DNA of 64,000 bases from Marsupella aquatica (taxonomy: Eukaryota > Plantae > Marchantiophyta), in the NCBI GenBank assembly GCA_973895155.1, contig OZ316898.1, positions 6,125,079-6,189,078 on the forward strand. The letters run 5' to 3'. The first letter of the stretch is position 1; each line of letters starts with the position of its first letter. Of the stretch, positions 6,877 through 44,746 are shown piece after piece. The notes under the pieces were generated by a model. That model was not told the DNA's origin. It ran no database searches and saw only the letters and a program-made list of their open reading frames with translations. Position numbers and translations under genes: made by a program.

Positions 6877-9800
6877 TCAGTAAAGAACCTCATCCTATAC
6901 AACAATTTTTGTCAACTTTGCTTGACCCTCCTCGGAATCTGAAAGTAAAACCTTGATAGTTGTAGGTGATGTTGCCCTTGAGAATGCTACATACAACTGT
7001 CCATGACTAAATACAGGCTTTGAAAGCTGCAACCCTACATGTTCTAAAGTCTGACCTTGAGCCTTGTTTATGGTCATTGCATATGCCACTCGAATTGGAA
7101 ACTGGACCCTACGTAATAAGAAAGGAAGTGACTCATCAGAGGTCAACGGAATCCGTGGGATAAATGTAAGGGTCCCTGCATGTTTTCCTGCAAGAACACG
7201 TGCCTCAATGACACGACGATTCATTGCTCTCACAATTAACCGAGTACCATTACACAACCCCAAAGAGTGATCTATATTCCTAAGTAAAATGATAGGGCAT
7301 CCAACCTTCAGTACCAACTTATGAGGTGGAAGACCACTCGGCGTGAGTGTATTCAAGAACTCCGTAGGGTAGAAATTTTCCCCTTCGAGCTGATCTGGAC
7401 GATCAACGCTAAAAAACTCACTTGATTCCCCAAGAAGTCCTTCTAAGATAGAGTCGTTAATTTTTAGTGCCTCGTCATTTGTCGGCGCCAGAATAGTTCT
7501 CTCACTTAAGAACCTGTCGTCCACATTAGCAAGAGTCGGGTATATTGCCTGAACCAATGATTCCACACGTCCTCCATCCACCACCATAGACTCAGGGCAA
7601 GTAATAAGATTATTTGAAAGCCCTCCTTTTGGGAGTTTATCATCGCCCAATTGTAGTAGCCACTCCGCAAATGTAACATTACCAAATTCAGGAGATGCGT
7701 TAGTTCCTCTTGCCCGCATATTTTCAGTTAGCTTCAAAGTCCGTATACTACTCCACACATAAGACTTCTTCAAACACGACCCCACAATCTCTGGACGACT
7801 TGCCCTTGCCTTCACTGGAAGCACTTGTTGAAAATCACCTGCAAATACAACTACAACCCCTCCAAAGATTTGGTCATTATCTCGTATGTCGCGTAAAGTT
7901 CTATCCAATGCCTCCATTCCATGCCGATGGATCATGGGTGCTTCATCCCACAAAATAAAAGTTGCCCTCCGCAATAATCCAGCAAGGTCAGATTGTTTTT
8001 GGATGCCGCATGTCGATGTCGAGATTGGTTTCAATGGTAGCTTGAATCTTGAGTGTGCGGTGCGACCTCCATCTAACAAAAGACTTGCAATACCCGAGGA
8101 AGCTACGGCCAATGCAATGTCCCCATCTACATGGACTCTCCGAAGTAGAACATTCTCCACAAATGTTTTGCCCGTCCCCCCTGGTCCATCAATAAAGAAT
8201 GTCGCTCCATCTCGAGCCCTCACCGCTGCAAGTATTGTAGTGTACGTTGCCCTTTGACCCTCGTTCAACAACGGCTCCTGCTCTGCAAGTTGTTGTAGAA
8301 GTACATCCATCGGGTAACGTGTCTCCTCTCTTATCAACCGGTTTCTATTTTCTTCCTCTTGGAAAAACTCCATACCTGGTTCCGGAAGACCAAACTCCAA
8401 CAATGTTTTACCCACACTTTTCAAAGCCTCATCCATCAAATGTAGAGCAAAGCTCTGTTGCTGCTGCTCCGTAGAATCTAAGAAGCCCATTGATTGCAAA
8501 CGATACCTACAATCATCACTCAAATTGGATGCATGTTGTGTCCACAGGTCGCACGGTTTGGCAACACCTCCAAACAACAATATTGTGATAAATAGTTGCC
8601 GAATTTGCGCACCGGTGTGCATACTTGCTGCTTCTTGAAGGCATCTATCCCACTCTTCATCGTTCTCATACAAACCCCGGGCAAGAGCCGCGGCCTGAAA
8701 GGTTGGGTATACATTGCCCTCAAATGTGCGAAGGTCGATAAATGATGTTGCACCTTTGATGTGAAGAAGAAGCGCCCTCAAGTAATACCGTTCACCCGCG
8801 GCTGGCGGCACAAAATACATCCTCCCAATGCTAAACCCTCTTCTTCGTGGGTTCCATGCACGGGAGGATGCATCCCACACAAACTCATTGGGGAAATTGT
8901 TGTAGAAAAGTTGTCTCGCACCTTCATGTAACATGTTAGCTTTGAACCACCCTTTGAGGGTTGTGTCCCTATGAGATTCTCGTTGGACCACATCATTGAT
9001 CTCAGAATCCTCATTGAACATTATTGATTGTTCCCCCTCACAATGCACCTGCAACCTTTGCACTGAAGTAGTACTCTCAGACATTTCAAACTGATTGATG
9101 CGCCATACTCCTTCAGCAGCATACACATATCTAGCATCTAAATGCTCCTTTACTTCGTCTCGTTGCTCAACCTCCACCGTTGCTTTATCGTGCCCTTTAT
9201 AACAGTACTTATATAAATACTTGATTGCTTTAATCGAAGAACAAATCTCCACATTGATATGAGCATTAAATCTCATGCTCAAATATGGACTATGAGGAAC
9301 AACCCACCTATTGTCAAACTTAAATCTGCTTTGATCTTTTGAGAAACTCCGGCCATCATCCCGACGTCGATACATAGGATACCCATCATCTCCAAAAACT
9401 GTTTCGGATGAAAATGATCGCGGATAGCCCTTGCTGCACTGTCCATCAACCATGCAAGGTGAGTTTGAATACCCGCGACTGCATGGACCATGAACTATAG
9501 ACTTCATAATAGTCTGATATAATTGGGGATGTACTCGCGTGTCCGGTATCTCTGCCGAAACCAATTCGTCAACCAACTCCGGGGTGCGCAACTTATGTCG
9601 TTCCACCAATATTATCAGTATGTGGGCGTGCGGCAGACCCCACTTCTGAAATTCAATGACATACATAGAGGCAATAGGTCTACCTAATACCCCTGTCCGA
9701 ATGTCCGCCAACAGGGCCTTCAACTTAAGTTTGAACACTCTCGCCACAATGTCATCGCGGTCAGCTGCGGTCTGGTAGGGGTAGCACTCCGCTTTGATTT

Positions 9801-12197
9801 CAGGCCATTCAGGATTGCACGTAAAAGTTATGAAAAGGTCTGGAGGCCCATACGTTCGAACAACCGCCATGGCATCCTGATAGGCCTGCATCATATGTCG
9901 TGCACTACCTCCATAGGTTGATGGTAGAATATAGGTTCTACCCACATCACTTGCTCGTGCGTCCTCATTTTGAACTGCATCTTGTAGCCCTTGATACAAC
10001 TCGGTCCTTAGCTTCTTCTGATTATTACGAATGTAGGTGAGTCGTGTTTGATCAATACATGCATAAGCATCCACAATGTATTGCTTTAGCAATCGTCCTC
10101 CACGAAGCAACCAATCATCTCCCCGTCTTGCATGTAACCTATACGCATAGTACTGAAGTTGGGTCACCTTCTTAGAACCATTTCGTCCACCCCTCGCTCC
10201 TGCATCAACAGCCACAATAATTCCATCTTGGAATTCATGGCCTGCCAATGGGATGTCATAAGACCACCCATCCTGTCCGTGAGGAAAAAGCAAAACATAA
10301 TGAAGGGGAGCATACGACCGATGCCACTCAGAAATCCTTTGTAGGCCACCATTCCTCTTCCTTAGGATTATGTCCCTACCACGTGTTTCAATATCTTCCT
10401 CTCCCACCATAATCACGCCAATTTCATCTGTTGTGGGCTTATTATAGCGCCTAGGGTCAGTATCTCACTCTGCTATAATACGTAGCGATACCTCTGCCAC
10501 CTCAGTGCCATCAATGCGGCTCCCCGCATTTTTGAAGAGCCCCACATATGGATTGTACGTATGCAGCATGTCTTGCAGTGAAGCTAACATAGCATGATCC
10601 AATTGTGGCATCCTATTCATCCTACAACCCAAGAAAAAACCATGAGACACAACTTACTGGAAACATACTTAGAATATTAAAGGAAAAAGCTTTCAAGAAT
10701 GTTGCACATATTACTTATTTACCTGTTTCCCAACTCATTTTCTGTATCATGAATATACAGTTGAGCAAATTTTGGTCCTTCTCCATCAGGCGGCAAGAGG
10801 CTACCGGCACGATGATATAATGCTCCTTGGATACGAAAGGAATATGGGCCTTGATTACCACCCCTTTCATCAATTTTAACACCTAGGGATGTAAATGCCA
10901 ATGCATTATTGTAGCCTCGAATATTCTTCCGGAATGCTGTAGCTGCGGCATTGGTACCAATCAACAAACTCCGTAGAGGTTCAGGGGGATCACCAAGTTC
11001 AGACAATACCACCTTCCCTTCGGCGCAACACATGGTAAAGAACGGGTTGCGTTGCGTCCCTGACTTGCACTCTTCGATCCAATGAAGCGCTTTGCATTGT
11101 GTGCACTCAATGTTCATGCGTCCCAAAAGATGTCGACCCATTGAAGGGTACAACGGTTGTCTTGCCTTTGGTAACCGTTGGATCTGTTCCACTCTTTGAC
11201 GCTCACGCAACACGTCATTTGGATTGAGTTGAGCTGGGGTAACTGGTGCCAGGTTTGTGCCTCCCATTTCCTCTTGGAGGATATTCTCAATCTCGTCCTC
11301 CTCAGATTCGTTTGGTAAATCCAAGGTGCCCTCAACAAATGTGTCAAATTGACCTCCTCCATCATCAAGGATAGGATTTCCCCCCTCGTGCAGAGCACCA
11401 TCAATGAGCCAATCTTCATCAAAGATGTCAGGGTCAGACCGTTCATTGTTTGGTATGGATTCACAGGGCATGGGGACGGCCAAACGGGCAACCCCATCTT
11501 GTAAAGCGCCATCAATGAGCCCTCCCTCGTCAAAGACATCCACATGTTGTGACCTAGTGTTGGTTACGGGCTCGCACGGTGGGGGAATGGCAAATTCCTC
11601 CGGAGACTGGTCAACCCTACACGCGTCCAAGGCACCATGAATGAGCCAACCTTCATCAAACATGGGAGGATCGGATGAACCGCTCATAGGCGTCACTGCA
11701 TGATTGGAAATTGCACTTGGGGCTGCCTCTCGGGTATTATTGATAGCGATGGATCTGGCCAATGCTTGTTGAGTAGCCCTTGCTTCACGGCGAAGTTGTC
11801 TTCCACTATTTTCCCGGCCAGATGCCGAAGTTGATCCTAAACTTGCCCCCTCAAGGGAGAGCAACGGTCTCACCAACGGTGTTGTTGGAGTTTGCCGCGG
11901 TGCCCTTGCTTCGCGCCTTAGTTGCCGACCACTAACTCTGTGGGCAAGTGGCACACTTGGCATGGCACTTGAATCACTTGGTTGTGGTGCCAAAAGTGTT
12001 GCACTTGGTGGAATGCACATTTCCGGCACCGGAGAACCCACAGTTGGTGTGGCACTTGGTTGCGGCATCGCACAGACTCAAGCCCCCTCTTGCTGTCGTC
12101 GCAAAGCATATTGTTGCCGACGCCTTGCATTTATTGCTTCCTTATTTTGGGCATGATGCTCGCGATCAGCTTCCAGCCTCTCCCTTGGGGTTCTCAT
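6877..12197 (-). pseudogene. Helitron RepHel (Zn-finger, HUH Rep, PIF1-like SF1 helicase); 2 exons; inactivated by in-frame stops
   Basis: ATG at 12197 (MRTPRERLEADREHHAQNKEAINARRRQQY); GT-AG intron 10622-10722 joins ...ENELGNR to MNRMPQL...; motifs CTQCKALHW..CC, TFTCNPEW, GLPHAHIL, YLYKYCYKG, GPGGTGKT, DEAPM, GDFQQVLP, TINKAQGQT; stops TGA 12078-12080 and TGA 10465-10467, probable premature TAG 6895-6897; reconstructed frame is 1740 codons. Confidence 0.92.
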
Positions 12198-15386: not shown

Positions 15387-17899
15387 TCAGTTGTCAGGGG
15401 TGGATCATCCCTCTCAGAGCATGTGAGAGTCCCTAAAGACGCTCTTAGAGGGAAAGGGACACTAATGTGACCATGGGTTACTCCAAGGGTCCCTTCGTAA
15501 TCCTCACACACTGGCATGTCTTTAGGGAGACAGAAGAGATTGCATCCTTCTAAGGCAATCCGCCAATGAAAAACTGGCATAGGGTATCCCATAGGGTTGC
15601 ATCAGAATCCTGGTATTGAACAGAAAACCAAAGATACTGTTCCTGAGGAAGGGACAGATGATACTAATTTTAATAAGAAGAAAACTTTGTATTCCATAAG
15701 TTGAACAAGCTAAACCTCAATAGCCCTTCCCCTTGAATTTCCAGTATTTCAAAATTGCCTGGTGGAAGAGTGGGCTTTTGGAAGCCAGAATGATATCAAC
15801 AAAGGAACTACAGTACTTATAGGCTCTTCTACTGGATGGCTCTAATAAGGCAACCCCATAATTTAATGCTACCTTTCTGGTGTGAACTTCACTCGTTATC
15901 CCTCACAGATTATTTTATATAACAGTGTCGACAAAAAACACTGAATTTGGAGACATGATCCCAAAGATCCCCTACGAAGGCAGGGAGACGAAACAGGTGA
16001 CCCAATATATAAAATGCAGAAAACAAAAGAATATCCCATGTAGACCAGAGGAGCCAAACGCCCTACAAAGGCCAAAATTAAGCTTTACAGTGGGGATGGC
16101 AAGGGAAAGATCACATCCTCACAGTGGAGCAAGGGCCATCAGGCCACGGCAAGGGGGCAAATGAGGCAACCGGGGGGAGGAGGGGGGGGGGGGGGGGCGC
16201 TCTGGTTGGGGGCATAATAGCGTGGACTAGGACTAGCAACGCTTGCATGACATGAAGAGAGAGGGCAGGCAGGGAGACCATGGGTGCTGGTACGCCTGAG
16301 GGCAGACGGGTCGTTGGATGAGGGTGTGGTGGAGGTGGTGGTGGGGTAGGGAGTGGGGGTGGTGATGCCCCAGGGTGGTGGGGGACGGTGGAAGCTGAAG
16401 AAAGTGCGTGGACGGGGAAGATTCGTCATCTGCTTCTTTCTGCCCATACTCGTCTCCCCTTCGTCTCTCTAGTGACTGCTGTGTGACCTTTTTCTATCTC
16501 TCTCTCTCGCGCGCTCGCTCTGCCTCTCTCTCTCATCTCTACGTGTGTCTCTCATGTCTCTGCCAAATGTTGTGCGGCACAAGAAGAGGATTGAGGTTGT
16601 GCGTGCCCCTGCTGCTCCTGCTGAGCTGCTGCTGATCTTCTGGCATGGCATCCTGCAGATGATGACATAATTTCGCTAAACCTATCTCTGTCCTTGGTTT
16701 GAGGAGTGAGGGTAAGGCTGGGACTCAAGGGAGGGGTTGTTGTGGCGAGAGGAAGGGGTAGCTACAGTTCCAACAGCGTAAACGTAATCCATCCTGCTCT
16801 GCAAAGCGGAAAAGCGTCCAGCCCTGCAGCAGACTGATTATTGAACATCACCAAACACCACCCTGTGTGTGAGCGAGAGAGCGAGAGCGAGAGCGAGAGA
16901 GATTGCTCACACCCTCGGCCGTGTGGTCCTCGACTGCTACTGCCACTGAAAACGTGCAACCCTATCTCATATCATATCAGGCATTCTTTCAGGGAGGGAG
17001 GGAGGCAGGCGGGGAGACGAGGCAAGGAGACAGACACAGGAGGCGACTGTTTATTTTTCCATTATCTGAAGACCGTTCATTGTTTGAGGCCACCGAAAGG
17101 AGTAGAGAGGTGGAGCGCGGAGTGGGACGTAGGTGAGAGCGAATCGGAGCGGAGCGGAAGGGAAGGGAAGGGAAGTGAAGACGGAAGGGAGAAGGGGGAG
17201 GAGGAGTTTGAGGACGAGGGGTAGTGGGAATGGAATGAAGTGCTCCATTGATTTGTAATATCGTCGTCGGCTACGACTGTATTTGTTGGCGAGGAATTGA
17301 AAAATTCCCGCAGAGAGAACAGTTGCATGGTGGGAAACGACGAAGATTTTTATTGCGCGGCGTGGATTCTGAGAACTGGCAGTGGCAATTTTTTTCCCCA
17401 GCATTATTTGAGGAAGAAAGGCTTTGTTCTTGCAGGTCGGTGCTGCGATTTGTCTCTGTAACGGATGCCGCTCGTCCTCGGTTTTGCCATGCGACGCGAT
17501 GTGTTAATTAGATAGATATAGAATAGAAAGAGTTAAAAGTGAGACTCACCGTCAACGGAGCCAGCCACCTTCGATTGATTGGAGACGAGGGTTGATTGTC
17601 GCGTTTCCGTCCTCCCTTCTTTCATTGGTCTCGTGTTGTAGTAGCAGCAACTGTGCTGGTTCCCAAATTTTACGAATTCAATGTGTGTGGTCTTCCTTCG
17701 TCAGCCAGCCGCATGACAAATAGAGATGGTGCGGCATCATCTTACAGCGGCGAGATAGCGAGAGGTGAAGAAGCGGAAGCGCAACAAGCTAGGGCGGCGG
17801 AGAATTCTGTGGAATAGTATTGTTGTCGAGATAATTCTGGCGTAACGATACGTACCTTGGGGGTATTCAGGCAGAGGGAGCGTACATGTGGCCTTAGCG

Positions 17900-20800
17900 A
17901 TGGTGGCAACGAAACGAGTCCCCTTAGCAGAGGTCGATAATGGAAAGGAGAGTAGAAGGGTGGCGGGGGGTACTATTGATGGAGTAGGAGGAGGGGGAGG
18001 CTCCATAGATCCTCTTGGGGGCTTCATCTTCGTCTGCAACAATGACACTATGGGCGAGGACTTCGAGCGCCACCTTTTTGGTAAGTTCTTCTTAAACCCC
18101 GACGACTCTGTTTTTCTACCGGCAAGCCGCCTGCTGTTCGAGCTTAAAAATTGCTGCTCACTGCTATCTCCGTCTGGCGTCGCATGGCTTATTGCGGAAG
18201 TCGGTAGACGACTTGTCGCTGCTGGCCGACCGCCTGCGAGCCTTCTCTGAACATTGATTCCTCGGCCGAGATATTTTATCAGCTAGCGACTCTCAAATGG
18301 CCTCAAATTTGTCCTTATGTTGGGACGACCTTTTGAGAGAACGTTGTCAGTTTTCCAGAACATATGTAGTTAGAATTCCGACGGTACTGTTTGAGCTGGG
18401 GCATTGCCTCTAGACCCGCATTAGGAATGCAAGCTGTTGGGAGTGTTTTAATTCCTAGGCTCGCCGTTTCCGCTTCAAAATTTGAGTAGGTTTAGTTCAG
18501 GGACGACGACGTTGTTAAGGAAATTCTGGCTTGCGTCCAACTTCCTCAAAAAGTGACGAGTGAGCCAATACTCGTTTTGATAGTTCGGCGAATGGCGTGA
18601 CCTCAATCCCTGCTCACTTTCGGAGCTTCATGATCATACTCCGGATTCGACTACCTTTATGTGCAGTGATTGCATGCTTAATGTTTATTTGATGTAGATT
18701 CCAAGTTTTGTGCTGTCTTCTTGATGGTGTCGTTGGCATGTGCCTGTCGTTGCTCGATTTCTCTGTCGCGGCTCACAGACTTGAACATGTAGAGGTTGAA
18801 CGTGTGGTTCTTAAAAGCAGGATTGTCAGGTTCTTGGTCATGTGTGCGGAACTCTTGTTATGCATATAGATTGGGGGTTCGGGGTTGTCTCTCTTGGATG
18901 AAAGGTTTTAGGGGTCCAGGATTTATTAGATAAGGTGCTGTAGAGAGGGGCTGCCCAGTGCTCAATTCCGACAGTCATGAGGAAAGTATCCCAAGTGTGC
19001 CCAACATTTGTGCCCGGTATTTCATTATTGCGGTGTTTCAACCTAACAGTAATACGACAAAGAGCAGAGGACACCCGTCGCGGCATTTTGGACTGATTTG
19101 TGCTCAAATTTCTGGCGAATAGGCACTTTTGAATTTGTCTTCACAAATCGTAAATAACATGACCAGTATAAACCAAGACTTGGAGATTCGCCCCATGGAT
19201 GTAGATTGCAAGAGAACATGAGGCGACACCATGAGAGATTATCTGAATGCCCTGGTATTTTAATTCTCATGGGCAGGGACTCCCACGACTCATGGTTTGT
19301 GGTGAATGTCATGCAGGTTTGCCGCAGAGATATCAGGATTCTGTGAAAGCTATCCAGCCAGGACTACCACTTTTTCTTTACAACTATTCAACGCGTTGCC
19401 TGCACGGTGTTTTTGAGGTGATTTTCCATTCCTTGTAGGTCTCACACCTTGCTTAGTTCCTCTTCCAGTGATGCGTGAGAAGAAAATCTCGTATGGGTTG
19501 AGATATTCCTACTTTTTTCCTAGTCAACAAGTTTCGAACCTTCTGGCTTGAGCTTGCTTGTAGTTTGAACTTTCTTCCTGGGAATTTTGGGCAATGTTCT
19601 CGCTCTGCGGTTTTAATCCTCTTAAGAGGGGTGGCCTCGTACAAGTGTCGGTCCTTATGAACGAATGAAGCCCGCAGTCGGATAGGGTCATTGCTTGCTA
19701 TCAGTGTCCTTTGTTGGTTGTGTTCGTTTTTTACCAGAATTTGTAGCTTTTAGAAGGTATGAGGTCTAAGACGTTCGGAGTCAGATTGCCGGTTTCTACA
19801 GCGAGCTCAATTCCATCAGTATTTTGGGGTTTAAGCTCGAGATGCGTGTAGTTACACAACTTTTAAGAATTTTACCCTTGAGATGATTCTGTTAAACCCT
19901 CTGCTTTACCTGTGACCCAATTGCCCCTATGTTAGTCTGCCTAAACATCATATCGTAGTAGTCAGGTGGACTTAGAAACTGAAAGGATTATTCTTTAGCT
20001 ACGTATGTCTCTGATTTCGACTACGTTGAAAGGCTCACTTAACATGGCTGTGAGATGTACTGTGAGCGTCCTTTGTGGTTTAATTGATTCTCACCTGTAG
20101 TTGATGCCAGTGCTACTTTGCCTGATTGTGCCTGTACGTCTGTTTCTCTCCCTTCTTCAAACACTTTTACCACTTGGTTGGAATAACAACTTTAGACTCA
20201 GGCTGGCCCAAGATTCTGCCGGTTAGTTGTCAGGCAGCAACGGGTGGAGCCTACTTGTTAGCTTTGTGGACAAATGCTTGAGGTAGTAGTACACAACCTG
20301 TTGTAGAATCCTTGGGATTGTCATAGAAGCAAGAGCCTTTCTCATGTTATGGAAGCTGGTCTAAGTTTGGGCCATGTCACCAAGAAAGCTCACTGTCAGT
20401 TGTTTGGATTTGAGAAGGCTTCAAGTGATGGTGGCTTGAATATTGAACCGGATGCATTTGGGGAAAATAAGGAGTCCCGAAAGAACGGAAGGCAATCTAT
20501 TTCGAGATTTCCTGCTCAGGTAAATATCTAGACCGGGAGGTGAAAGGAGAACTGACATTGTTGGAACACGCTGTATTGATGAATAATGGCGCCAGCTAAT
20601 TCAAGTCCCAAAGTCAGCTGATTTCCTGCCGTCTCTGAACTTTCCAATACTCTTCTTCAATTATTTATTGCGCATAGCAGGACGGCCTTGAAGAATTTTC
20701 TGGAAATCTATGTTTGTAACTGAGTGGCCTTGGAGCCTCATCAATGCCAATTTCTCTAGTCATTTTGAAGAGCTGTGTTCTATGCCGTTGAAAAATCTTA

Positions 20801-23800
20801 ATAAATCTAACACTTTTTGCAGGTGAGAGTGAGGTGGCGAGAAGAGAGACCACCTCTTGGTGAAGAAAAATTTCGACCAGTTCTTTATCACTATGATGGA
20901 TCGAAGTTCAGACTTCAGCTTTCAAAATCTGAGGTAATTCTGTCTTCGCGGTGTATAGCCATAGCTTGGAATTACTTTTTCGCTGTGGTGGGTCTCATTC
21001 CTATAGAAATATTTCGATTTTGAATTTTGGATCATTTTTTAGGCATAGTTGGTGTTCAGAGAGATGTTACAGTGATTCAATCCGAAGTATTGCGCAACCA
21101 CTATGGTTTCTCCTGATTCTGATTCCTACTGGTCTGCCCAAATTTTGGCTTCATTCAGGCGCAGGAGCTTCTTAAATTATTCGGGGCCTCACCTGTGAGG
21201 AAGATTGAGGAAGTGCCAGAGGATACTGGTGGAGAATGGGAGAAAGTGAAGACCAAAAGTAAAGGAGGCCGTGGTTTTCGTGGCGCTCCTCTTGCTAAAG
21301 GACCTACTTCTCCTAACTCAACTGGTGGAAGAAGGCGAGGAGCAGCTCAAAATAGTTCCAGTAGCAATGGAGGTGCCTCACTTTCTGGTTTTAATAATTT
21401 TGTACATGAGGCAGTAGGCCGAGGAAGAGACCGTGATAGCAAAACTGATAGTGCCCAGCGATGGCGGACTGATTCGGACTCATGGAGTGGATCTTCAAGT
21501 GCGGGTACAACATCTTCCAATTCTGGTTTACTTGAGGAAGAACGGTCAAAGAAATTGCCACATGAGAATGGATTTGTTGTTGAGATGGGCGAAGGTGGTG
21601 GGTTTGTTAGTGGTCCGGGCTTTGATGGAATCAACGGGGTATCCACCTCTAAGAGCTTCATTCATTCAAACGGTAATCATGTGGAGGATGAGCAGAGAGT
21701 GGAGATTAGACTAATGGAAGACGACTCAAATGAGTTAAATGGGTTTAGCATCAATGCCATAGGGGGAGCAAGTTCTAATTCCCGTTCCGGTTTTGTATCA
21801 TATAGTGCCGCTTTGAAAGCTGGTATGTTAGCTTCAGCAGCAGCTGAAAATGGTTTTGGAGAAAGTAATGTTGTATCTGCGCCTGCAGAGCATGCGGTTT
21901 CGCCAAATAGTAATTTGGGAAATCGGAGTAGTACGAATTCTTACAGCAGTGCTGCAGCGGCCGCTAATGTGTCCCCTTCTAGCCTTAACAGAATCACGAA
22001 GGGGGATGTTTCTGTGGACGCTGTAGATGGCCCGACCCAGAAAGTAGGTGGGTTGAATAAGGCTCGATTGAATGGTGAAGGGGTGGCTAGTAATCATGTG
22101 AAAGCCAGCCCTGTATTTGGAGTCGACATTGGAAAACAAGAAATGAAGGCTGACATTGGGACGAATGGAGATGGAACTGCTAAGAGAGCACAGCCATGGG
22201 GCAAGCCTATAACTGCTAGATCTAGTCTCCCAGAAGTTGGCTCTGTACAGAGCACTGCGATCGGAGACAAGCCGAAGGCCACGGTGAAAACAGCCGGTGA
22301 TGCTTCCTCACCGCCCAAGAAGCTTGCTAAGGATGTTTTGAAGAATGTTGTCAGTGAGGGAGAAAATGGCGACACTAGCTCTGGAAATGGGCGCCCTGGA
22401 CACTCAGAAGCAAAGGAGAATGCAGGAAAGCCTGCAGATCCTATTGTCAGGAAGAATGCCTGGCAGGGTAATGATGCTGCTGTTTTGCGGCTCCTGCACG
22501 ATCCAGATCCAGCAGTGAATAGCTCTCCAGTGAATGGGGAGACCACTGCGCAGGGAGCGGAATCAGAGGTGCCGAAAAAGCAAGAGAAGGACCAGATGCC
22601 ACCTCAGCAACCTCAAGAGATTGCTGTGCTGTCTTTAGCGGAGAAGGGTGACACTGATGGCCGTCCAGCACAATTGTCAAAACACTTCCCAAATTCTTCA
22701 GGTACATTGCTCCCTCATGGGTCGCAGACGAGGGCAGTTCCACAGGAAGGACCTCCATTTCAGCAGGGCCGGCCTGTTCACGAATCAAGGAAACAGCAAT
22801 TGGATAGTCAGAAACATGACAAACATCAAGAAGACAGGGCACACTTCAGGAAGCAGCAAGGTCACCCTCAAGAGCATCTGCAACATCCACCCTCAATGTT
22901 GCACACACAAGCTCATCAAATTGGGCAAGGCTTAATGCCCTTGCACATTCCTACTCCCTCTTCCCCAGGATTGCAGCAACATCACCACCATCCTCTCTTA
23001 TCCCCATCGCCTCAGCTATATCGGGACCGTTCTCGATCTCGTGCAGGGAATGGCAATGTTGAGAATGTTCATTACAGACCTATCAGTAGGAATATGCTTG
23101 ACGGGGACGTGGCACTGCAGAGCCCACTCGTCCCAGGGAGCTGGGGGTTGCAGTCCCCAGTGCTCTTGATGCAGCCAGTGATTTCCCCAGTCACTGGTGG
23201 GTTTACATTTCCCCCACCTGCCCCTCATCTGCTCGTCAATGTGGAGGCCCTCCATGCTGAGATATTGGAATTTGCCCAGGCAGCAACTCCTTCAGCTGAG
23301 GCTCGAGTGCATGCAGAGGCGGCTGTTGAATGTGTTCGGAGCAGTGTCAAGCTGTTATGGCCTGAAGCAGATGTGGAGGTAAGTTTTTCGAGCGTAGTAT
23401 AACCCCTTTTTTTTCTTCTATAAGGTACTTCGTAGACTGATTCAAACTTCGAGGGGTCAATACCTAGACGTATAGAAGTGTGATTTAAAACACCAAGTAT
23501 TGTTAAGAAAATTTCTTTGTTTTAACTCTTTTCTGCAAAGTATCATACTAGGAGGCGTGAATGGGGGATTGTTTCCTTGAGATATTGTGAGGGACTATGG
23601 TTTAGGGCTCAGGATCAAATTTGAAAGTATCTAATATTACTCTTCATGCTTTGACAGGTTTTTGGTTCATTTGCGACAGGCTTGTGTCTTCATCACAGTG
23701 ATGTGGATGTGGTGGTAGTAGATGCACCTCCACCCGAAGAGGTCCTAGGAAACCCGGCTTTGTCTGGAGCACGATTGTTGACTCCTTTGATAAGGGCTCT

Positions 23801-26456
23801 TGCTTCTGCCCTTAAAGAAAATGATTGGTGTGAGGGTATTAATACAATTGAGACTGCTTCAATGCCTGTCATCAAGCTCCGTTGTAGCCCAATTGCAGAG
23901 GGTGTCCCTGCTAGTACGCCCGTAGCTATTGATATCACAATTGGGGGGAAAAGATCTGAGAGTTTTGCAGGGATTCGTCAAATTAGTGTACAAAAGGAAG
24001 GAGGTCCGAGTAAACCAGTGAACCACAGGTTCGAGGCTGCAAGAAATGCCCACAATGGAGCTGCTGCAAGAGAGTTCGTAATCGAGAGACTCAGACAACT
24101 TCCAGCTCTCGCACCTTTGGTAAGTTGGTTTGAAATGCTGCTTCGTTCAGTTTTTTGCTGTTTAGTTTGTCCAATATCTGGTGGCGGCCTAAGTATGTTA
24201 AGGAGGTTTCTCTAATAGACACGTTTTTCTGTTTCAGGTTCTGCTTCTGAAAGCGTTTTTGAGATGCAGAAGTCTTAACGATGTCTATTCTGGAGGGCTT
24301 GGATCATTTGCCTTGACCTTGATGCTTGTTTTCTACCTAGAGGTAATGAAGTTTTCTCGTTTCATATCTTTGAGCAAACCCACATCAGTTTCGGCAAAGT
24401 TTACGATGGGGGCTCCGTGAGTTTTCCTGGAGTCAAGGCGTTGAGTAAGTTGCAATCTTTTGGTTGGGTAGATCTCTATTGAGGTTACTTAATCTTGGCT
24501 TTTTGCCAAGGTTCTGGTCTTAATTGTTGCAAATCAGTGGGTATCAAACTGATGGTCATTTGATCACATCTCCGTTTCTCCAATTGGAAATGTTATTTGA
24601 GCGTGTGGTCGTTAATGTCTCCGTGAAAGTCCTTTGCTTTCCTTGATATAATTCTCCGCTCTATCGTGTACTGATACTTTGAATTCCTGTCTTCAGCGAG
24701 CACCAGTTTCATGCGGCATTCCTCAAGAAATCATTCGTTCATCAACGTCTTCTTCTCCAGCAACTGGTGAGGTTTCTCCTAAAACAAACGTGGAGACCTC
24801 TTTTCATGTAGATGGGGAGACCTCTTCGCAACCGAACAAAGAGACTTCTTCTCAAGTAAATGGCGATGCCTCCTCTCAAACGAATGGGGGAGCTTCTGCA
24901 GCAATTCAGGAGATTCCATCTCCAGTAAGTGGGGAGAACTCTTCTCTAGGAAATGATCTGATTTCTTCCTCAGTGAAAGGGAAGTTTCCTTCCTCCGGGA
25001 AGGGGGAGAGTCCTCCAGCAACCGGAGATATTCTTTCTCCAGTCATTATGGAAATTCCTTCTCCAGCAAACGGAGAGACAAGTGCTTTATCTGTCGACAC
25101 ATCTCAGGCTTCAGGAGCTATGGCAGAGTCAATGGACTTTTCTGACGACGAGTCTTCTGATTCATCTGTTCTGACCAGCACTTCAGCTTCCAGCATGGTA
25201 TCCATGGAAGGGGCATCTCATCATGGGGAAATTGCTCCAGTGCCTATGAATTCCTCAAACGAGGAGCCTCTGCTGAGGAAAGCAGGAGGCATTGTGGAGG
25301 AGTTGCTGACCTCTATGTATTCTGTTGCCTCCCCAAATCTCGGGACGCTGTTGATTGGATTTCTGCAGCACTTTGGCACGGAGATTGATTTCTCTCGAGT
25401 TCGTCTTGTCTTGAAGGTACGGCTACTTTCATGGAAGATATAGCTCATTCCAGATGCCAGCTGTCTGTCCAACCAGTCCGACTAAACTTGTTTGAGCTGG
25501 CCACAATCTATTGTTCTTTATGTTATAGACAAACCAACCTATCACTATTTGTAAGGGTTTGATATAAAATATATGTTTTCCGAGCAGTTGTGCGCAGTGT
25601 TTCTGATGCATATTCTAGAGATATGCGATGAACCATCGTTTGGACAGATGTGCATAGCACTAGTAACAAATGACTCCAGTAAGCGATGGATTGGTTTCAA
25701 TTTAGCCAATTTTTGGTCGTCGTTGTAACGAGAGTTCGATCGAATTCTAGGGAGTCTGAGGAGGAAATGAATTAATGTATGTGACTTGTCTTGTAGGGGA
25801 AAAATGGAAATCCAGGAGGTATGTTCTGGCATGAGAAGAATGCAAGAACTTTACCATTGTGTATTGATGATCCCTTGCGACCAGATGCCGCAATTGGAGC
25901 AGGATCTTTCAACATCTGGCAAGTGCAGGTATGTTAGCATTCAAACCAAATGCATACCGTAGAATTTCCCTAGCACTGTCCTTGTCCACTATCATGTCAT
26001 AGTTGTTGCTAATCAATGTATTTTGACATCCGTTTGGTCAGTCCCAGCATCAGTTTTGCTAGACAATTTTCCAAACGCAAGTCAACATGGCCGATCCTCC
26101 TGGGGACTAGTAAATCATTAGTTGAATATGAACTCCAGATATTCAAAAGAATGAAATGTGGAATATAAACCGAGGCTCTGAGACACGAAAGAATAATTCG
26201 ATTCTAAGGCTTCCGTTGAAAACGCTAGATTTGTATTGTAATCTTGCGTAATGACTTTCTGTGACAGTTTTTTTCTCATCGATGATTTTTGGTCCTGTGA
26301 CAGGCTTCTATGCGTGACATGTATTCTGTAATAGTGAGACCTCAGCCAGTTGGCAGCAACCATCTCTCTGATGGTGAAAGGATTGGAAAGGGCCCTGGAC
26401 GGAGGCGACATGTATCTCTTTTGCAGCAGTTTTTGGTAAATGACATGTACCCTTGA
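17900..26456 (+). CDS. DCD-domain / Trf4-PAPD5-like non-canonical poly(A) polymerase (terminal nucleotidyltransferase) fusion, 10 coding exons, ~1428 aa
   Basis: Exons 17900-18080, 19317-19417, 20418-20519, 20823-20933, 21159-23378, 23658-24119, 24238-24342, 24697-25416, 25797-25928, 26304-26456; all GT-AG and phase-compatible. DCD motifs GGFIFVCNNDTM..RHLFGLP, PGLPLFLYNYS..LHGVFEA..GG.NIEP.AF, SRFPAQVR, FRP.L.HYDG.KFRL.L. NTase motifs LHAEILEF, EVFGSFATGL..SDVDV, IDIT, LLKAFLR.R.LNDVYSGGLGSF, NLGTLLIGFLQHFG, LCIDDPL. The last exon is the least certain. Confidence 0.88.
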
Positions 26457-29162: not shown

Positions 29163-32100
29163 CACTGCTCACTATCATTAGTCTTATGTCACAAATAATG
29201 TTATACTCAATTAATGTTAGTAAGTCTAAATCAAGTGAAGGGGGTATTTTGACAAAAAAATAAGAGTAATTGTGGATCTTTTGTAATTGTAAATAGTATT
29301 TGTGATTTACACTAGGTTATGGTAAAAGTGGACAGGTGCAATTGACATGTCAGTCTGAAAGCTTGCTGACAATAACGTGGACCAATAAAGCCACATGCAT
29401 TGGACAGCTAGTGTGATGGCTGCATGCATCACTAGCTCTCTACGTAATATTTTCTTGGATTTTCCTCACTATAGTAAGATTCTACTCAGAACATAAAATC
29501 TCATTGACTTTTGTTTGAGGCCATGCAAAAACGGGGGCAAAGTTTTGAGTCGCTCCAGATTGTACAGTAGCTCTCTATCCTGACAATGAATTTTCTGTTG
29601 TAAAGCTTTGTCGTGACAAGTCCACATAGGCAACATTTGATTGCAATCCCCTTTGAGAACGCCTGAATTTTCTCAAAATTACAAATCTTGTTGACTTTAT
29701 TTGCCACCATGCAAAAACAGGGCAAAGCTACGGGGGGAATTTGAGCTCACAATGCTCCGATCATTGATGTGATTCAAACATTGACAGATTGGAATGAATT
29801 GTGTGTCAATATAAGGGACTGAAAGATTTGTAACTTGCACATTTCAAATCTGGGAGGTTCCCGTACGTCTTGCTTGCTGATGAAATTATTGATTATTGCA
29901 TGCCCCTTTGAGACTTGTACGTAGCTGAGAATCGAGTTGATCTTTTGATTGATCTGCAAAGGCAATAGATAGAGAGTGTGCTTGTGTATTTTCAATGATT
30001 CACAGTTGGCTTCCTATCATTGAATTAGACCATTTCGAACAGCTGAGGTTGTTGTCAAGCTTTCTTGAGTATTTTTTGCATTTGCAAGAAAGAACGGTCT
30101 GCAACTAAGCTGATCCACGAGGTGAGGTGAGTAGCTTTGGTTTGATTAAAGCTGAATCTTTAGTTTGCTTTCAACTTATTTTCAATCCATTCGATCAATC
30201 AAACATTGAGTTGAAGTGGAACTTGTGTCTGAGTGGCAATTTCTCAATCTTGTGAGCTTGCAGGTCCAGGTGCAGGTCAGGGTACGTGTTCAAGTTAGTT
30301 CAAGCTATTGATCACAGATGGGCTCATATGGCTCTCCCCTTTTAAGTGCATGGAGACATGCAAGGCAGCCCTTGCCTCCAGTTCTGTCCACTGAAGAGGC
30401 TGAACATGGAACCTAAGAGTAGCAAGAGCAAGTCAACCAGCAACCACTATCGATTCAGGCTGAAAGATCTCGTACATTACAACATGTCTGCACTAAGGCC
30501 CAACGAGTGAAGGTCATTAAGTGGATGCAGGCTACAGTTCAATTTAGAGGAGGAGAGGAACGATTGATTGCCACCGATGCAATTAAACAATTTCCAAAGT
30601 GTTTTTGTTCTGCTAGTGCAACTGCAAACATTGTGAAGGCATCACGATGGTGGAAGGAACGGGAAAGTATTCTGGAATCTTTCAAGGTAGACAAGATGTG
30701 TGTGAGCCGATCATTTCGTGATGGGAGGAAACAGACAGAGTTGAAGGCGGGTCCAGGCAGGGGGAGGAAAGCAGCCGCTTGGACTACTTGGTTGTACCCT
30801 ATCGTGAGAGATGAGTTTGAAAGATTAAGGTCTGCAGGCCTGAAATTCTCACCCAAGGTACTCCTTCTAGTTGCTAAAAATGCATTAGTGACAAACAATC
30901 ATCCCACTTTCTTTCCGCAAGCTATCTTGGATGATGATCCAAGATCTCTGACAGATAGAATAACCCCTAGGTGGGTCCAACAGTTCCAAGAGCAAAATAA
31001 CATTGTCCATCGTTCTCAGACCGGTAAACTTATGGTTTCCCCTGCCAAGCAAGAGTTCATAGAGAGAAGAGTAGCTTTCCACATGGGATTTCTTGCACGT
31101 GGTTTTAGATCTGGAATCTTGGATGAGAATGACCAGGAGAATATGGATGAGACTCACTTTTGTGTCAATATGGACAACGGGAAGACATTAGGTTTCAGAG
31201 GAGACAAAAATGTGAAATATGCAGATATTGTTAGTGGAGGAGTTGGAATTACCATGGTAGTAAAAGTCACAGGAGGGGTTCGAGGGAAAATTGGGACCCC
31301 TTTCATGATTTTTCAGAATGATCATTGTTCTTATCCGATTAGGGGAGTTCCTGATAATGTGCCAGGTGTATGCTATCGCTCCACAACATCCTCGTTTATG
31401 ACTTCAAAATGTCTGACAGAATATTACAAGGATGGGAGGGTCAATTGGGCAGATCCTAGTGGACATAGGAAAGTCCAATGGATGGATAACTACCCATGGC
31501 ACAAAATTCTTCCGGATACCAAGACAGCCTTGGAGCACATTAACATGGAGGTGAGAAGATTCCCTGATAATGCTACTCACTTGGTACAACCCTGCGATAG
31601 CTTTGTAATTTCAAAAATCAAAGATTCCTGGACACGAAGGTGGGAGGTGAAGAAAATGGAGCTGATCAGGGATAGTCAATTGCAGGGTGATGGAAGGCAT
31701 GGTACAAGTGGTATGCTCATTAATCCAGGGAAATCTTTTTTCTTGCAATTGGAAGCTGACTCTGTACGTGATGTCAACAGGCAGGTTGACAAACATTACG
31801 GAATAAGTTATGCCAGAAAATCTATGATTAGAACTGGTCTCTCCTTAAATCTCAATGGGCTGTGGGAAGAGGAGCAACTTTCACCAGAATTACAGCAAGT
31901 CATTGAGAAATATCGGTGGAATTTTAACAGAGGGTTGCAAGGTCTGTTAGATATTGATCCACGATTGCCCCTAACATAAATTCCTTTGAATGTTGGAGAA
32001 CCCTCAGCTCAAGAAGACCTTGACAGTGATGAAGTTGATGAGCTTGACAGTGACGAAAATGAGGACTCCCTGCTATTGTCTCACGAACCTGAACCACTTG

Positions 32101-39614: not shown

Positions 39615-39646
39615 CATAATCTAATACCTAGTAGAAGCCAGTCACC

Positions 39647-42600
39647 ATGTCTTCTGATGTTACCAAAATCTCATTCCTCGAGAGTGACAAGCTAGTGGGT
39701 GCTGCGAACTACATGGTTTGGGCATTCCTGGTAGAACAGATCCTTCGTGAGAAAGGTCTATGGGAAATCGTTCGACCTCTGATTGTTCAGGTAACTTCTC
39801 AGACATCACAGGCTGGCTCTGCTGCTGCCAACGTAGGTGGTACACCTCAGGCCGGTGCAAGCTCGTCTAGCACCTCAGGCAGCAGCGGATCTGGATCTCA
39901 ACCAGTCTCTCAGGCTCCAAGCCAGAAAGACAAAGTAAGTGCTCCAATTGTTCCAATCGTCATGCGTCTACGTGAAGATCCCGCGAAGCTGTGGGTCACA
40001 CTCAAGAAAAAATACGAATCTGCAGCTCTCTCACGTAAGCTTGCTCTCAAGACTGCTCTTTCTGCATCAAAAATGAAAGAAGGGACCTCTGTTCAGGAAT
40101 ACCTACACAGCATTGAACGCCAGGTTGCTCAGCTCGGCTGCGTAGGAGAGTCAGTCCCTGATAAGGAACTAATCACGATTGTGCTCAGGAATTTGCCCGA
40201 CAGTTGGTATAACTTCGTTGCTGTCTACGGAGTCATGTTTTCAAAGGAAACCCCAGATGCTAGTTTTGCAGACCTGGAGGAATACTTGCAGGCGGAAGAT
40301 GCACGCCGAAGAGCTCGCTCGGAAGAGCACTCATTCACTGCTACAGCATACGAACGACGGCCTATTCAGACTACTAGATACACTTGTGGAAGGGGTCGAG
40401 GACGCAGCACCCGTGGGCGACACCAACACGTACCTGACAGGCGCATCGAACCATGCAGCCACTGTGGAAGACGAGGGCACTTTGAGTCAGATTGCTTTAT
40501 TAAGCATGCCGACACAGGGATGCGGTCCCTGACAGTCTCCCAGCAACGAGAAATCACTCAGCGCATCAAAGATCTCCAAGCAGACAGCTCCAAGGCATAT
40601 GCAGCTGAAGAAGAACCTGATGACGGCGAATACCTTACAGGCTCAGATAGTGAGAACAAATCTGGTCTCACTATGGAGGCTATGCTCAGCGAATTTGAAC
40701 CGCGAGAATCCAAGCGTCAAACCTGGATCCTGGATAGCGGCGCATCTACTCATATGAGTCATGATGTGAAAAACTTTTCTACCATTAAAGGCAATTCTTC
40801 CACCTCCAATGTTGTTACCGCCAGCGGCACCAAAATGCCAGTGTCTGGATCAGGATGTATTCCTATTTCTCGCAATAAAACAATTTCTGATGTTTTGTAC
40901 ATCCCGAGTATCACTAGAAATCTACTATCTATCGGCAAACTTGCCGATCAGGGTCATTCTGTACTGTTCGACTCTAAGTGCTGTTACATAATGGACAATC
41001 GTAGTCCTAAATTAGTTCTTCTCAGAGGATACCGTGATCCAGCCAATAAGCTATACAAGCTTACTGTTCCCAACATTTTGCCAGACACTAGTCTCCGACG
41101 CACTTCTGTGCTACCACACCCCAACATCACCGCTCAGTGTCAGCTAGTCGAAGGTCCCCACTCGGTGGCACAACGGTGGCATCAACGACTGGGGCACTCC
41201 AACTACCAGCGTCTCAGCCACATGACAAAGCATGGACTTGTTCTTGGAGTTCCACACCTATCATCGTCGAAGGATATCTGTGAAATTTGTGTCAAAGGCA
41301 AACAAACTCGAAACCGTATTCCAAAAGCAGCAATTCACCGTGCAACTCGACCACTGCAGCTAGTTCATACGGACCTCTGCGGTCCACTCCCTACTTCCTC
41401 CTTGTTTGGTTCCAGGTATTTCATTACGTTCACCGATGATTATTCCCGGTACTCCTGGGTCTACTTCCTCCAGTACAAAAGTGAAGCCCTGGAAAAATTT
41501 AAGTTCTTCAAAACTCAGACCGAGACAGCACTGCGTTGCAAAATTGCTTGTCTTCGGAGCGACCGAGGGGGAGAATATGTGTCTGCTCTATTCACCCAAT
41601 TTTGTCAAGACAACGGCATCAGGCGACAACTCACGGTCGCCAAAACTCCTCATCAAAATGGTGTCTCAGAAAGGAAAAACCGTACCCTTCTAGACATGGT
41701 GCGTAGTATGTCCATTGGATCTAATGCTCCAGAATTTCTTTGGGAAGAGTACGTTCGGGCTGCAAACTTCATCAACAACAGGTGCAGCACTCGTGCTCTA
41801 AATCTGGCTACTCCATTTGAATGTATAACCAGAAACAAACCAAACGTAGGGCATTTTCGAGTGATAGGTTGTACTGCTTACATTCATGTTCCCAAAGATA
41901 TGCGGAATAAACTAGAAGAAAAATCTATCAAGACAGTTCTTGTTGGCTACGATGATCAAAGCAAGGCCTATAGATGCTTTGATCCCACAACTCGAAAAAT
42001 CATCATCTCTAGAGATGTAATATTTGACGAAGGTACGCTAGGAGATTTCTTGTCTCCATCTACTTCTACACAAGAAACACTCTTTGATCTATTTTCTGAT
42101 GACGATCACATGGAGACACAGTCCCAACCTGACACATCAGTTCCAACCACTTACCCTCTTGATGACTTTCTCGATCAAGAGGCCGTGACTCAAGCACCCA
42201 GGGATCCCGATCCAAGCTCCCCCGGAGAACTCACGACACCAATTATCGCTTCATTACCAGAGGATCAACCTCCACCGTCAGTACCGAGGCAAGTTCGCAG
42301 AGCTCGTCAAAGACTTCTTCAACGCACCAGGCCTTCCTCAGGGAGACTTACTTCCCATCCATACAAATACTCTGATTTTCACGTGACTTATTCTGCTGAA
42401 GAGATAGAGTTTTGTACAGCACTATTGGCAAATTCTGCTACAGACGTTCAGCTTCAACAGGCACTATCAGATCCTCTCTGGCTTGCTGCCATGCAAACCG
42501 AGATGAACGCTCATGACAAGAATCACACATGGGATCTTGTACCTCTTCCCTTCGGGGAGAAAGCACTATCTGCTCGATGGGTCCTTCGGGAAAAAATTGA

Positions 42601-44142: not shown

Positions 44143-44601
44143 TCAACGAAGTCTAACACTTTCGCGGACTAGATAAATCTCTGCCTCCTGACGTGACCGA
44201 AAGGATTTAAATCGGTTTCCTCTAAAACCGCTTACTAGTGGCTCCACTTCTTCCCATGTAGTGTATATCCCAGGACGACGCCCCCGAGCAATGGCATAGT
44301 AACGACGAGGCAGCTCTATGCTGCTCCTCACCACATCGTCTGCATATGCTCGAACCATGTTATACTCACTGCCTCCACTGGAGACTGGTACTCCCAGTGC
44401 TACAGGACCGATTGGTCTCTCATCGACTTCACTCACGTGACCATCTGTTGCATCAAGCGTTGCTGCGTCTGCAGTAGGTCCTCTCTGTCGACCTCGGTGC
44501 AATACATCACGCAGCATTCGTGCAAAGGAGGCAATGAAGTCCAACATTGCCAACAGCAGTACCAGTCCCGACTCACGTAGTGTCATGGCGTTCTGATCCA
44601 T
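44143..44601 (-). CDS. Antisense accessory ORF (152 aa from first ATG) with a C-terminal RNase H1 N-terminal hybrid-binding / caulimovirus viroplasmin (Cauli_VI) domain
   Basis: YYAIARGRRPGIYTTWEEVEPLVSGFRGNRFKSFRSRQEAEIYL (44170-44304) fits the HBD pattern YAVxxGRxxGIYxxWxEC/VxxxVxGFxxxxFKxFxxxxEAxxY; hydrophobic N-terminal segment GLVLLLAMLDFIASFA; lies between the pol stop and the PPT. Confidence 0.85.
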   Translation of the reverse strand: MDQNAMTLRESGLVLLLAMLDFIASFARMLRDVLHRGRQRGPTADAATLDATDGHVSEVDERPIGPVALGVPVSSGGSEYNMVRAYADDVVRSSIELPRRYYAIARGRRPGIYTTWEEVEPLVSGFRGNRFKSFRSRQEAEIYLVRESVRLR

Positions 44602-44746
44602 CACGATCTCTAACTCTTCGGATCTCACGTTCTTGTTGCATGACACTCACCTTGGCTTCCGCTCCAGTCATAGACCTACCTGATATATGTTCGTTCACAT
44701 CTTACGTGTCTCTGATCAGATTGTCTCATCTGAGTAAGATGTGGTC

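Follow-up and report, generated by a model that had tools for sequence, protein, structure and literature searches.

TUT4 and TUT7 carry RNA-binding modules of their own, and Mmi1 of S. pombe is a YTH reader tied to RNA 3'-end processing. To our knowledge, no biochemical function has been demonstrated for the DCD domain since it was first described. An RNA-binding domain is generally absent from Cid1-family enzymes, and in Trf4 a loop at residues 364–368 touches Air2 (PMC3479196). Arabidopsis is without a clear Air1 homologue (PMC8894942). MEE44/NTP9, another Trf4-related enzyme of that plant, is long and has not been studied (PMC8894942, PMC13030794); none of our hits was identified as MEE44. 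The DCD has been placed in the PUA-like superfamily by a study that describes its fusion to YTH, KH, zinc fingers and an mRNA methyltransferase-like domain, including heterokont Znf-YTH-DCD-KH forms of CPSF30 in which a reader is tied to the RNA 3'-end machinery. That study also found prokaryotic DCDs in restriction contexts (PMC7641849). Since it proposed that the DCD binds modified bases in RNA, what is new is not a link of the DCD to RNA metabolism but the joining of a DCD to a tailing enzyme.

We found this joining in a 64,000-nucleotide stretch of the genome of the liverwort Marsupella aquatica (the window). The protein has the catalytic triad and central domain in common with Trf4 (PDB 3nyb, the TRAMP core), TENT4/PAPD5 and plant TRL, but differs from them in having its own DCD and in falling outside the TENT4/TRL-type clade. 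TUT4/TUT7, Cid1, URT1 and HESO1 are alike in fold, with sequence matches weaker than that of Trf4. The fold predicted for the liverwort DCD is that of the YTH readers tied to 3'-end processing (Z 9.5–11.6), such as Mmi1, plant CPSF30-L and the heterokont CPSF30 forms; in such YTH 3'-end systems reader and polymerase are separate proteins, whereas in the liverwort they are one chain. Among described DCDs, subgroup I (the NRP/B2 type) is the closest here, but the liverwort domain is N-terminal and joined to an enzyme, and none of the four subgroups in the accessible part of PMC1182354 has a DCD-enzyme architecture. A sequence-only reading of the locus knew of no description of the architecture, and our literature search likewise found no paper on a DCD-nucleotidyltransferase fusion. 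PMC12839542 has DCD in a reference only, the supplements of PMC7641849 hold no relevant passage, and databases name family members only as "DCD domain-containing protein".

Gene structure and splicing

A single gene model (17900–26456, + strand) has 10 exons totalling 4287 nt and encodes 1428 aa, with one terminal stop and no other. The protein runs from the DCD through a disordered linker of about 680 residues to a Trf4-like nucleotidyltransferase. All nine introns have GT..AG ends. The features are as follows.

17303..17899, +, 5' leader, covered by an RNA-like contig from a related species
17900..18080, +, exon 1: start codon, Gly-rich leader, first strand and helix of the DCD (DCD from about 18017)
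19317..19417, +, exon 2: DCD, profile 23–55, E 3.7e-10
20418..20519, +, exon 3: DCD, profile 56–79; AAG acceptor confirmed by an RNA-like contig
20823..20933, +, exon 4: DCD, profile 81–117
21159..23378, +, exon 5 (2220 nt): last DCD helix (to about 21188), low-complexity linker (aa 176–857), first nucleotidyltransferase helices (from about 23235)
21231..21257, +, linker motif 1, W-E/Q-x-V-x-x-K, directly after the DCD; also in Mamiellales-type proteins
21798..21818, +, linker motif 2, SYSAALK type; a similar motif in Mamiellales-type proteins, twice in some
22458..22511, +, linker motif 3, AWQGND...LHDPDP; zygnematophytes to lycophytes
23658..24119, +, exon 6: catalytic palm, with GS at 23664–23669, D920 at 23700, D922 at 23706 and D997 at 23931
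24238..24342, +, exon 7: GGLGS motif and central-domain helices
24697..25416, +, exon 8: Ser-rich insertion of about 190 aa, followed by a helix conserved in the family and by the PAP-associated helix
25797..25928, +, exon 9: nucleotide-recognition motif (25863–25910)
26304..26456, +, exon 10: last helices and stop codon

The Pfam DCD profile (126 positions) matches exons 1–4 in order, with exon 1 taking positions 1–21. The domain also needs exon 5 to be complete, since that exon opens with the last DCD helix. The 2.2-kb exon is stop-free and in frame as claimed but reaches only the first enzyme helices, with the catalytic residues in exon 6. The FGLP, LFL, PAQV and PLxE motifs, given as DCD motifs in PMC1182354, are all present in the window model. 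In Calypogeia fissa protein P0001, near-identical to the window protein, the DCD spans residues 41–174 (E 3.9e-39), and PF10539 scores 133.8 bits against a cut-off of 27.8. A tblastn search of the window gave no second DCD gene. Eight ATGs lie upstream of the main start within the window, and the frame of every one closes ahead of it.

Evidence for splicing came from contigs of run X1, from a related species, which was tentatively classed as RNA by an automatic guess; none of the runs is recorded as RNA. They place GT..AG joints at the predicted sites of seven of the nine introns (1, 2, 3, 5, 6, 7 and 8); at intron 9 there is a 375-nt skip not placed at GT..AG. These joints were absent from runs X2, X4 and X5. 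At intron 4, which joins DCD to linker, no X1 contig bridges with 31 letters on each flank. One contig that stops at exon 4 carries 8 further loose letters, identical to the first letters of exon 5, and the following one begins at 21157, preceded by 19 unaligned letters. An in-frame CAG further upstream was considered as the acceptor of exon 3 and set aside in favour of the AAG at 20417, the site used in the main RNA-like contig.

That the exon 4–5 joint is not formally bridged, that no single X1 contig spans the whole mRNA, and that in Klebsormidium an enzyme model without a DCD is two accession numbers away from a separate DCD gene would all fit two adjacent genes merged in our model. However, the DCD ends within exon 5, in frame with the enzyme, and full fusions occur in independent genome annotations of many genera and on contigs scarcely longer than the CDS (1347 aa on at most 4918 nt; 937 aa on 3672 nt), which we read as spliced transcripts. 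We regard a merger as nearly excluded. The stop-free frame, the intron ends and the spliced contigs of the relative bear out the view that DCD and nucleotidyltransferase are one gene.

The enzyme and its placement

The catalytic signature is intact in the window model, as the sequence-only reading had it: G908-S909, D920, D922 and a third Asp, D997. In the family alignment GS, D920 and D922 are present in 51/51 sequences and D997 in 50/51, with one gap. Trf4 is the closest solved structure (3nyb; sequence E 6.3e-19, profile E 2.2e-36, Foldseek fold E 1.3e-14) and aligns along three stretches of the enzyme. Both a palm and a helical central domain were found, PF22600 and PF01909 exceeding their cut-offs. 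PF03828 (PAP-associated) is slightly below its cut-off in Selaginella (22.2 against 22.6 bits) and absent from the P0001 listing.

The nucleotide-recognition motif departs from that of Trf4. The window has Ala at the positions of both N431 and R435. Across the 51 family sequences the first position is Ala in 24, Val in 18, another residue in 6 and a gap in 3, with Asn or His in none; the second is Ala in 44, with Arg or Lys in none. The TRL-type rows have Asn in 9/10 and Arg/Lys in 10/10 at these positions, and the TENT4 rows have them in 3/3. Unlike Cid1-type uridylyltransferases, the family has no His at the Cid1 H336 position (0/48 aligned sequences). Uridylation may still occur, because HESO1, with Val there, is a known exception among uridylyltransferases; the Cid1 His336 to Ala change raises ATP use (PMC5689010). 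A further difference from Trf4 is an insertion of about 60–190 residues in the Air2-contact loop, placed by a numbering offset derived from D425/N431/R435. In the window it lies in exon 8 (about 24706–25284) and comprises about 190 aa, 23% of them Ser.

In our trees a TENT4 plus TRL-type clade excluded the DCD-enzyme family with support of 100/99 under two models. The rows do not include yeast Trf4, human TENT4 or Arabidopsis TRL; the anchors of the TENT4/TRL clade are a Macrostomum and a Urochloa "polynucleotide adenylyltransferase", and the clade labels are our own. Grouping the family with the TRL-type rows was rejected (AU p 0.004), as was grouping it with the TENT4 rows (AU p 0.0003). A single origin of all DCD-bearing enzymes was not rejected (p 0.497); its branch had an SH-aLRT of 85 in the quick mixture tree, appeared in only 18% of bootstraps in the careful mixture tree and did not resolve under LG+G4. 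Judged by its sequence, the enzyme is a lineage separate from the TENT4/TRL group, because it lies outside that clade, is without the Asn and Arg that read ATP, and has the insertion in the Air2-contact loop. As to the proposed link to RNA 3'-end surveillance, a TRAMP-like nuclear role and adenylation are not established, because of the clade placement and the missing ATP-reading residues.

The DCD domain and its kin

We predicted the structure of the DCD alone (mean pLDDT 88.8) and compared the model with 48,161 structure chains. The best match was PH1033 (1wmm; Z 13.8, rmsd 2.7, 125 aligned), which we take to be an EVE protein. The YTH domain of Mmi1 followed at Z 11.6 (rmsd 2.9, 121 aligned), and further matches were VcaM4I (11.3), the YTH domains of YTHDC2 (11.1) and AtCPSF30 (9.5), and THYN1 (9.1). 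All 15 chains with Z of at least 8 are EVE, YTH, ASCH or uncharacterised proteins of that fold group, the model has the EVE/YTH barrel of PUA-like readers, and Foldseek agrees. No YTH chain matched in a sequence-profile search at E up to 10. The comparison with PUA/YTH-like folds suggested by the sequence-only reading therefore gave an EVE/YTH-like match, and this predicted fold lends independent support to its idea of the DCD as a built-in selector. A predicted resemblance to EVE and YTH nucleic-acid readers makes it likely that the DCD selects RNA for tailing. Our literature search found no experiment showing RNA binding by any plant DCD.

EVE domains also bind modified DNA, and a common fold does not give the ligand. 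ESM Atlas look-ups returned generic DCD and PAP clusters only, and a complex prediction of the Selaginella DCD with its own enzyme domain, run without alignments, scored 0.01.

Within the DCD family, the fused domain has 61–69% identity to 10 of 12 NRP-type rows and 51% to the other two, as against 40–45% to the N-terminal DCDs of Kelch-type proteins. NRP-type rows nest with 11 of 14 fused DCDs (98/87), and NRP/B2 genes lie near the fusion gene in two genomes. Klebsormidium GAQ80717.1 was considered as the first part of a split fusion, a reading that was rejected because it is an NRP-type DCD.

Distribution of the fusion and candidate explanations

The fusion is not a one-off. It defines a conserved family that extends over most groups of streptophytes, with members in liverworts, mosses, lycophytes, ferns, two conifers and zygnematophyte algae, and with no flowering plant among the named hits. 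Precomputed Pfam annotation shows the fusion in 35 of the 41 hits, and a local HMM scan shows it in 48 of 51 family sequences, a set that counts isoforms and the window model. A 2026 review of plant tailing enzymes, whose family tree is based on five flowering plants, leaves the DCD unmentioned and thus appears to have missed a tailing enzyme of non-flowering plants. Identities between the window and Marchantia paleacea are 127/136 in the DCD, 181/240 in the palm region and 343/664 in the linker; with Selaginella they are 93/133, 138/227 and 75/269. The DCD is conserved on a par with the enzyme, while the linker (pLDDT below 50 in the Selaginella model) drifts.

Going by sequence comparison and predicted fold, we lean, if only somewhat, towards a self-targeting RNA-tailing enzyme whose DCD would read the target RNA that the tethered nucleotidyltransferase then tails. 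In the target RNAs the DCD would bind a short motif or a modified base, replacing an Air/ZCCHC-type adaptor (the Trf4 Air2-contact loop holds the long insertion here), and the enzyme would add a short untemplated tail. Ala in place of Asn/His and of Arg in the recognition motif suggests that the tail may be A-rich but loosely selective. Short linker motifs could recruit partners, and tailing might promote decay, which is our guess by analogy with Trf4 and Mmi1.

The DCD could instead be a protein-binding or localisation module that docks an active enzyme onto a partner complex or granule, leaving the partners to choose the RNA. The closest DCDs belong to NRP/B2 stress proteins, which the accessible literature reports with protein interactors, and conserved short linker motifs suit partner binding; but the structural matches at Z of at least 8 are all of the reader fold group, and other eukaryotic DCD fusions go with RNA-processing domains (PMC7641849), so we think docking rather unlikely. 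Those same fusions, pointing to mRNA processing, speak against a DCD that recognises a modified DNA base and recruits the enzyme to chromatin for the tailing of nascent or transposon RNAs. THYN1 with 5-methylcytosine DNA and the restriction enzyme VcaM4I are among the EVE-type matches, and the prokaryotic restriction contexts (PMC7641849) also suit this idea, to which we give a small chance. We find it about as improbable that DCD and enzyme fold together hold RNA and its 3' end with catalysis secondary. Mamiellales-type proteins (Ostreococcus-type algae) keep the DCD, linker motifs and enzyme fold but are catalytically dead by sequence, two catalytic Asp being replaced by Asn and His/Ala in 5/5 tree rows, and both DCD halves lie upstream in 16 of 18 marine loci, the other two being cut by contig ends. 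The DCD-enzyme pairing can thus persist without catalysis. However, the triad is kept in streptophytes (50–51/51) and in labyrinthulid fusions (3/3 rows), and the Mamiellales form is, by the trees, at most a putative orthologue.

A broader and more doubtful possibility is that the self-targeting enzyme represents an ancient, separate Trf4-related lineage coupling RNA-modification reading to 3' tailing in one chain, one that would predate the green-plant split, be kept dead in Mamiellales and lost in flowering plants, and whose reader would be the parent of the NRP/B2 proteins. If so, NRP/B2 stress and cell-death proteins would be RNA readers too. A DCD on an enzyme offers a direct read-out, in the RNAs tailed with and without the DCD, in Marchantia and Physcomitrium; the close NRP/B2 kinship would carry the answer to crop stress proteins, and the unusual nucleotide-recognition motif may give a new type of tail.

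Some family members depart from the common plan. Three records have no DCD (P0022, P0027 and P0040), and their gene models may be truncated. The Diphasiastrum paralogue P0030 has a decayed DCD, and two labyrinthulid-type members have an added RRM (P0091 by Pfam RRM_1, P0114 by its UniRef name).

The fusion gene and its splicing

The gene lies on the plus strand at 17900–26456 and has ten exons, with all nine introns bounded by GT..AG. As the sequence-only reading had proposed, the DCD exons run in phase into the 2.2-kb exon 5 as one gene, and the product is a stop-free 1428 residues. Exons 1–4 match Pfam DCD in profile order, the start of exon 5 (2220 nt) encodes the last DCD helix, and the same frame reaches the first enzyme helices. 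The match to the palm of non-canonical poly(A) polymerases falls in exon 6. The closest database protein is P0001 from the leafy liverwort Calypogeia fissa (exon 6, 95%; DCD, 134/136; linker, 588/680).

None of five available sequencing runs is recorded as RNA, and splicing was checked in four of them, X1, X2, X4 and X5; the type of X1 was guessed ("RNA?"), and this run has a different organism code from the window and many substitutions. X1 has joints exactly at introns 1, 2, 3, 5, 6, 7 and 8, all GT..AG, and skips the expected 375 letters at intron 9. On one side, the intron 7 and intron 9 joints are covered by fewer than 31 letters. At intron 4, one X1 contig extends 8 loose letters beyond exon 4, identical to the first letters of exon 5, and the following contig starts at 21157, preceded by 19 unaligned letters; we read the two as overlapping at the spliced joint, which falls short of a formal bridge. 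X2, X4 and X5 lacked the gene's intron joints. Complete fusion proteins (P0009, P0021, P0025, P0032) also occur on Logan contigs little longer than the coding sequence and on a transcriptome-style record. Since we read these as transcripts, they support the gene model independently.

A second spliced X1 contig over 24017–25829, with lower depth (22) and a shorter exon-8 insertion, is possibly a paralogue or another liverwort in that run. The 5' leader (17327–17897) contains eight upstream ATGs, which may regulate translation; the longest frame has 44 codons, and the last ends 2 nt before the main start.

Distribution and origin of the fusion

The architecture extends across most streptophyte groups. 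Both DCD and enzyme were present in 35 of the 41 longer proteins matching exon 6, with fusions in Calypogeia, Riccia, Marchantia, Sphagnum, Physcomitrium, Ceratodon, Selaginella, Diphasiastrum, Adiantum and Ceratopteris. An enzyme-only alignment search (56 proteins) added DCD-bearing Closterium and the conifers Taxus and Cryptomeria. When 1.84 billion representatives were searched in full with HMMER, the best 150 matches added Spirogloea (P0067), a marine protein (P0095) and three labyrinthulid-type proteins: P0114 (Mucochytrium), P0091 (filed under Durusdinium) and P0107. Hornworts, Chara, cycads and pines were absent from the named matches. No flowering plant was among the named matches of the exon 6 and enzyme-only searches, which are word-seeded and can miss relatives. 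Look-up gave names to 30 proteins; the angiosperm proteins so named comprised a DCD-less TRL-type enzyme (P0141) and DCD-only proteins (P0094; Triticum). The fusion was likely lost in angiosperms.

Other combinations, seen in P0118, P0109, P0165 and P0135, were two DCDs with a NYN nuclease and Trf4-like enzymes with ankyrin repeats, a CNOT1 CAF1-binding domain or a NIF phosphatase.

Proteins that we call Mamiellales-type, from the kinship of P0095 to an Ostreococcus tauri protein, retain a DCD that is often intron-split and overlooked by gene calls. Both halves were present at 16 of 18 marine loci, the other two being cut short. Their first catalytic Asp is replaced by Asn and the third by His or Ala. 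Short linker motifs are conserved in the family, and because two extend into Mamiellales-type proteins, sequence comparison favours a shared origin of these and the streptophyte fusions. Trees neither proved nor rejected a single origin for all DCD-bearing groups. The marine loci (L001, 2038–2800, and L002–L018) encode a pseudo-enzyme with DCD whose DCD intron is one codon off intron 2 of the window gene. The O. tauri record has a U-box where the DCD is expected, perhaps a merged gene model.

A literature search, with most subscription papers outside its scope, found no paper describing the fusion. The searched text of PMC7641849 lacks the words nucleotidyltransferase, Trf4, NTase and moss (Fig. 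13, on plant DCD classes, lay outside the text search and could show the fusion), a word search of its three supplements found nothing on the fusion, and the portion of PMC13030794 searched does not mention DCD. UniRef calls family members "DCD domain-containing protein"; databases thus already contain the architecture, without a name for it. The initial impression of an undescribed architecture held for the papers searched, but the architecture is present in many streptophyte groups. Both domains were already known; their fusion is real, conserved and apparently undescribed. Through this fusion, the role of DCD can be tested directly in model bryophytes, and its presence there indicates that angiosperm-only surveys have overlooked a predicted tailing enzyme.

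The two domains and their likely cooperation

In the structure predicted for the Selaginella protein, disorder connects two confidently modelled domains. When the DCD was modelled alone (pLDDT 88.8), a step suggested from the sequence, and compared with 48,161 chains, EVE-type and YTH chains matched best: the EVE protein 1wmm (Z 13.8), Mmi1 YTH (11.6), VcaM4I (11.3), YTHDC2 (11.1), AtCPSF30 YTH (9.5) and THYN1 (9.1). A second fold search agreed. The predicted fold confirms the profile-based proposal, in the part of PMC7641849 consulted, that DCD is a PUA-like domain with a possible role in binding modified bases, and does not itself give the ligand's identity.

In a DCD tree (55 rows, 129 columns), 12 NRP-type rows, so called for resembling subgroup I as described in the portion of PMC1182354 seen, formed a clade (100/99) nested with 11 of 14 fused streptophyte DCDs (98/87); three fern fused rows fell just outside. 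Judged by gene numbering, the enzyme gene has an NRP-type gene in its vicinity in Klebsormidium (GAQ80717.1 and GAQ80715.1, each on a contig of 257406) and Riccia (the pair R1sor_024145 and R1sor_024139). This proximity suggests that one DCD arose from the other by local duplication, in either direction. The 64-kb window contains no further DCD gene.

Trf4 is the best solved relative of the enzyme domain by sequence and by fold, and catalytic residues are retained in 50–51 of 51 family sequences, so the Trf4-like assignment and intact signature stood; grouping with the TENT4/TRL type did not. In trees of 59 enzyme cores (281 columns; DCD excluded, near-duplicates removed), drawn from a 93-row set plus four Mamiellales-type rows and without yeast, human or Arabidopsis reference proteins, the streptophyte family formed its own clade (100/99), lying outside the one that unites TENT4-type with TRL-type rows (also 100/99). 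Topology tests rejected joining it to either type.

Besides this placement, the family departs from Trf4 in its nucleotide-recognition residues and its Air2 loop. According to the part of PMC5689010 consulted, Trf4 reads ATP through D425, N431 and R435; the family keeps the Asp but, unlike TRL/TENT4-type rows, never has Asn or His at 431, or Arg or Lys at 435, in its 51 sequences. As a general rule, His marks U-adders and Asn A-adders (PMC3479196, in part), and changing the Cid1 His to Ala increases ATP use (PMC5689010, same part). By analogy, and with low confidence, we expect the tails to be rich in A and loosely selective. In Trf4, a loop of five residues contacts Air2 (PMC3479196, same part); this loop aligns with a Ser-rich exon 8 insertion of ~190 residues.

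Most likely, by slightly better than an even chance, the DCD would bind target RNA and the tethered enzyme would tail the RNA so held, the built-in DCD standing in for a separate adaptor. The gene structure, conservation and catalytic residues underlying this proposal are observed and the reader fold is predicted; we infer RNA binding, activity, tail type and outcome. The DCD could conceivably be a protein-binding module, a distinctly less probable role, and reading of DNA is doubtful. It is similarly improbable that the protein is a reader-scaffold with dispensable catalysis: the catalytic residues kept throughout the family speak against it, and their replacement in Mamiellales-type proteins speaks for it. 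That the model merges separate genes is very improbable beside the full-length fusions elsewhere.

Neighbouring elements

Other elements in the window:
6895–12077, minus strand, Helitron-type element (1189-codon frame, Helitron_like_N and PIF1 helicase)
30423–31979, plus strand, DDE_1 transposase-like frame (domain match)
39635–44057, plus strand, Copia-type retrotransposon (reverse transcriptase divided between two frames)
44143–44646, minus strand, 167-codon frame with RNase H1 N-terminal (Cauli_VI) domain (E 2.3e-18)
~49583–53636, minus strand, telomere repeat-binding protein gene (TPR1-type ubiquitin-like domain; start of Myb-like helix by eye)

A 452-codon frame that precedes the Helitron-type frame looks like its front part. 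The Cauli_VI frame is directly downstream of the Copia-type retrotransposon, on the opposite strand.
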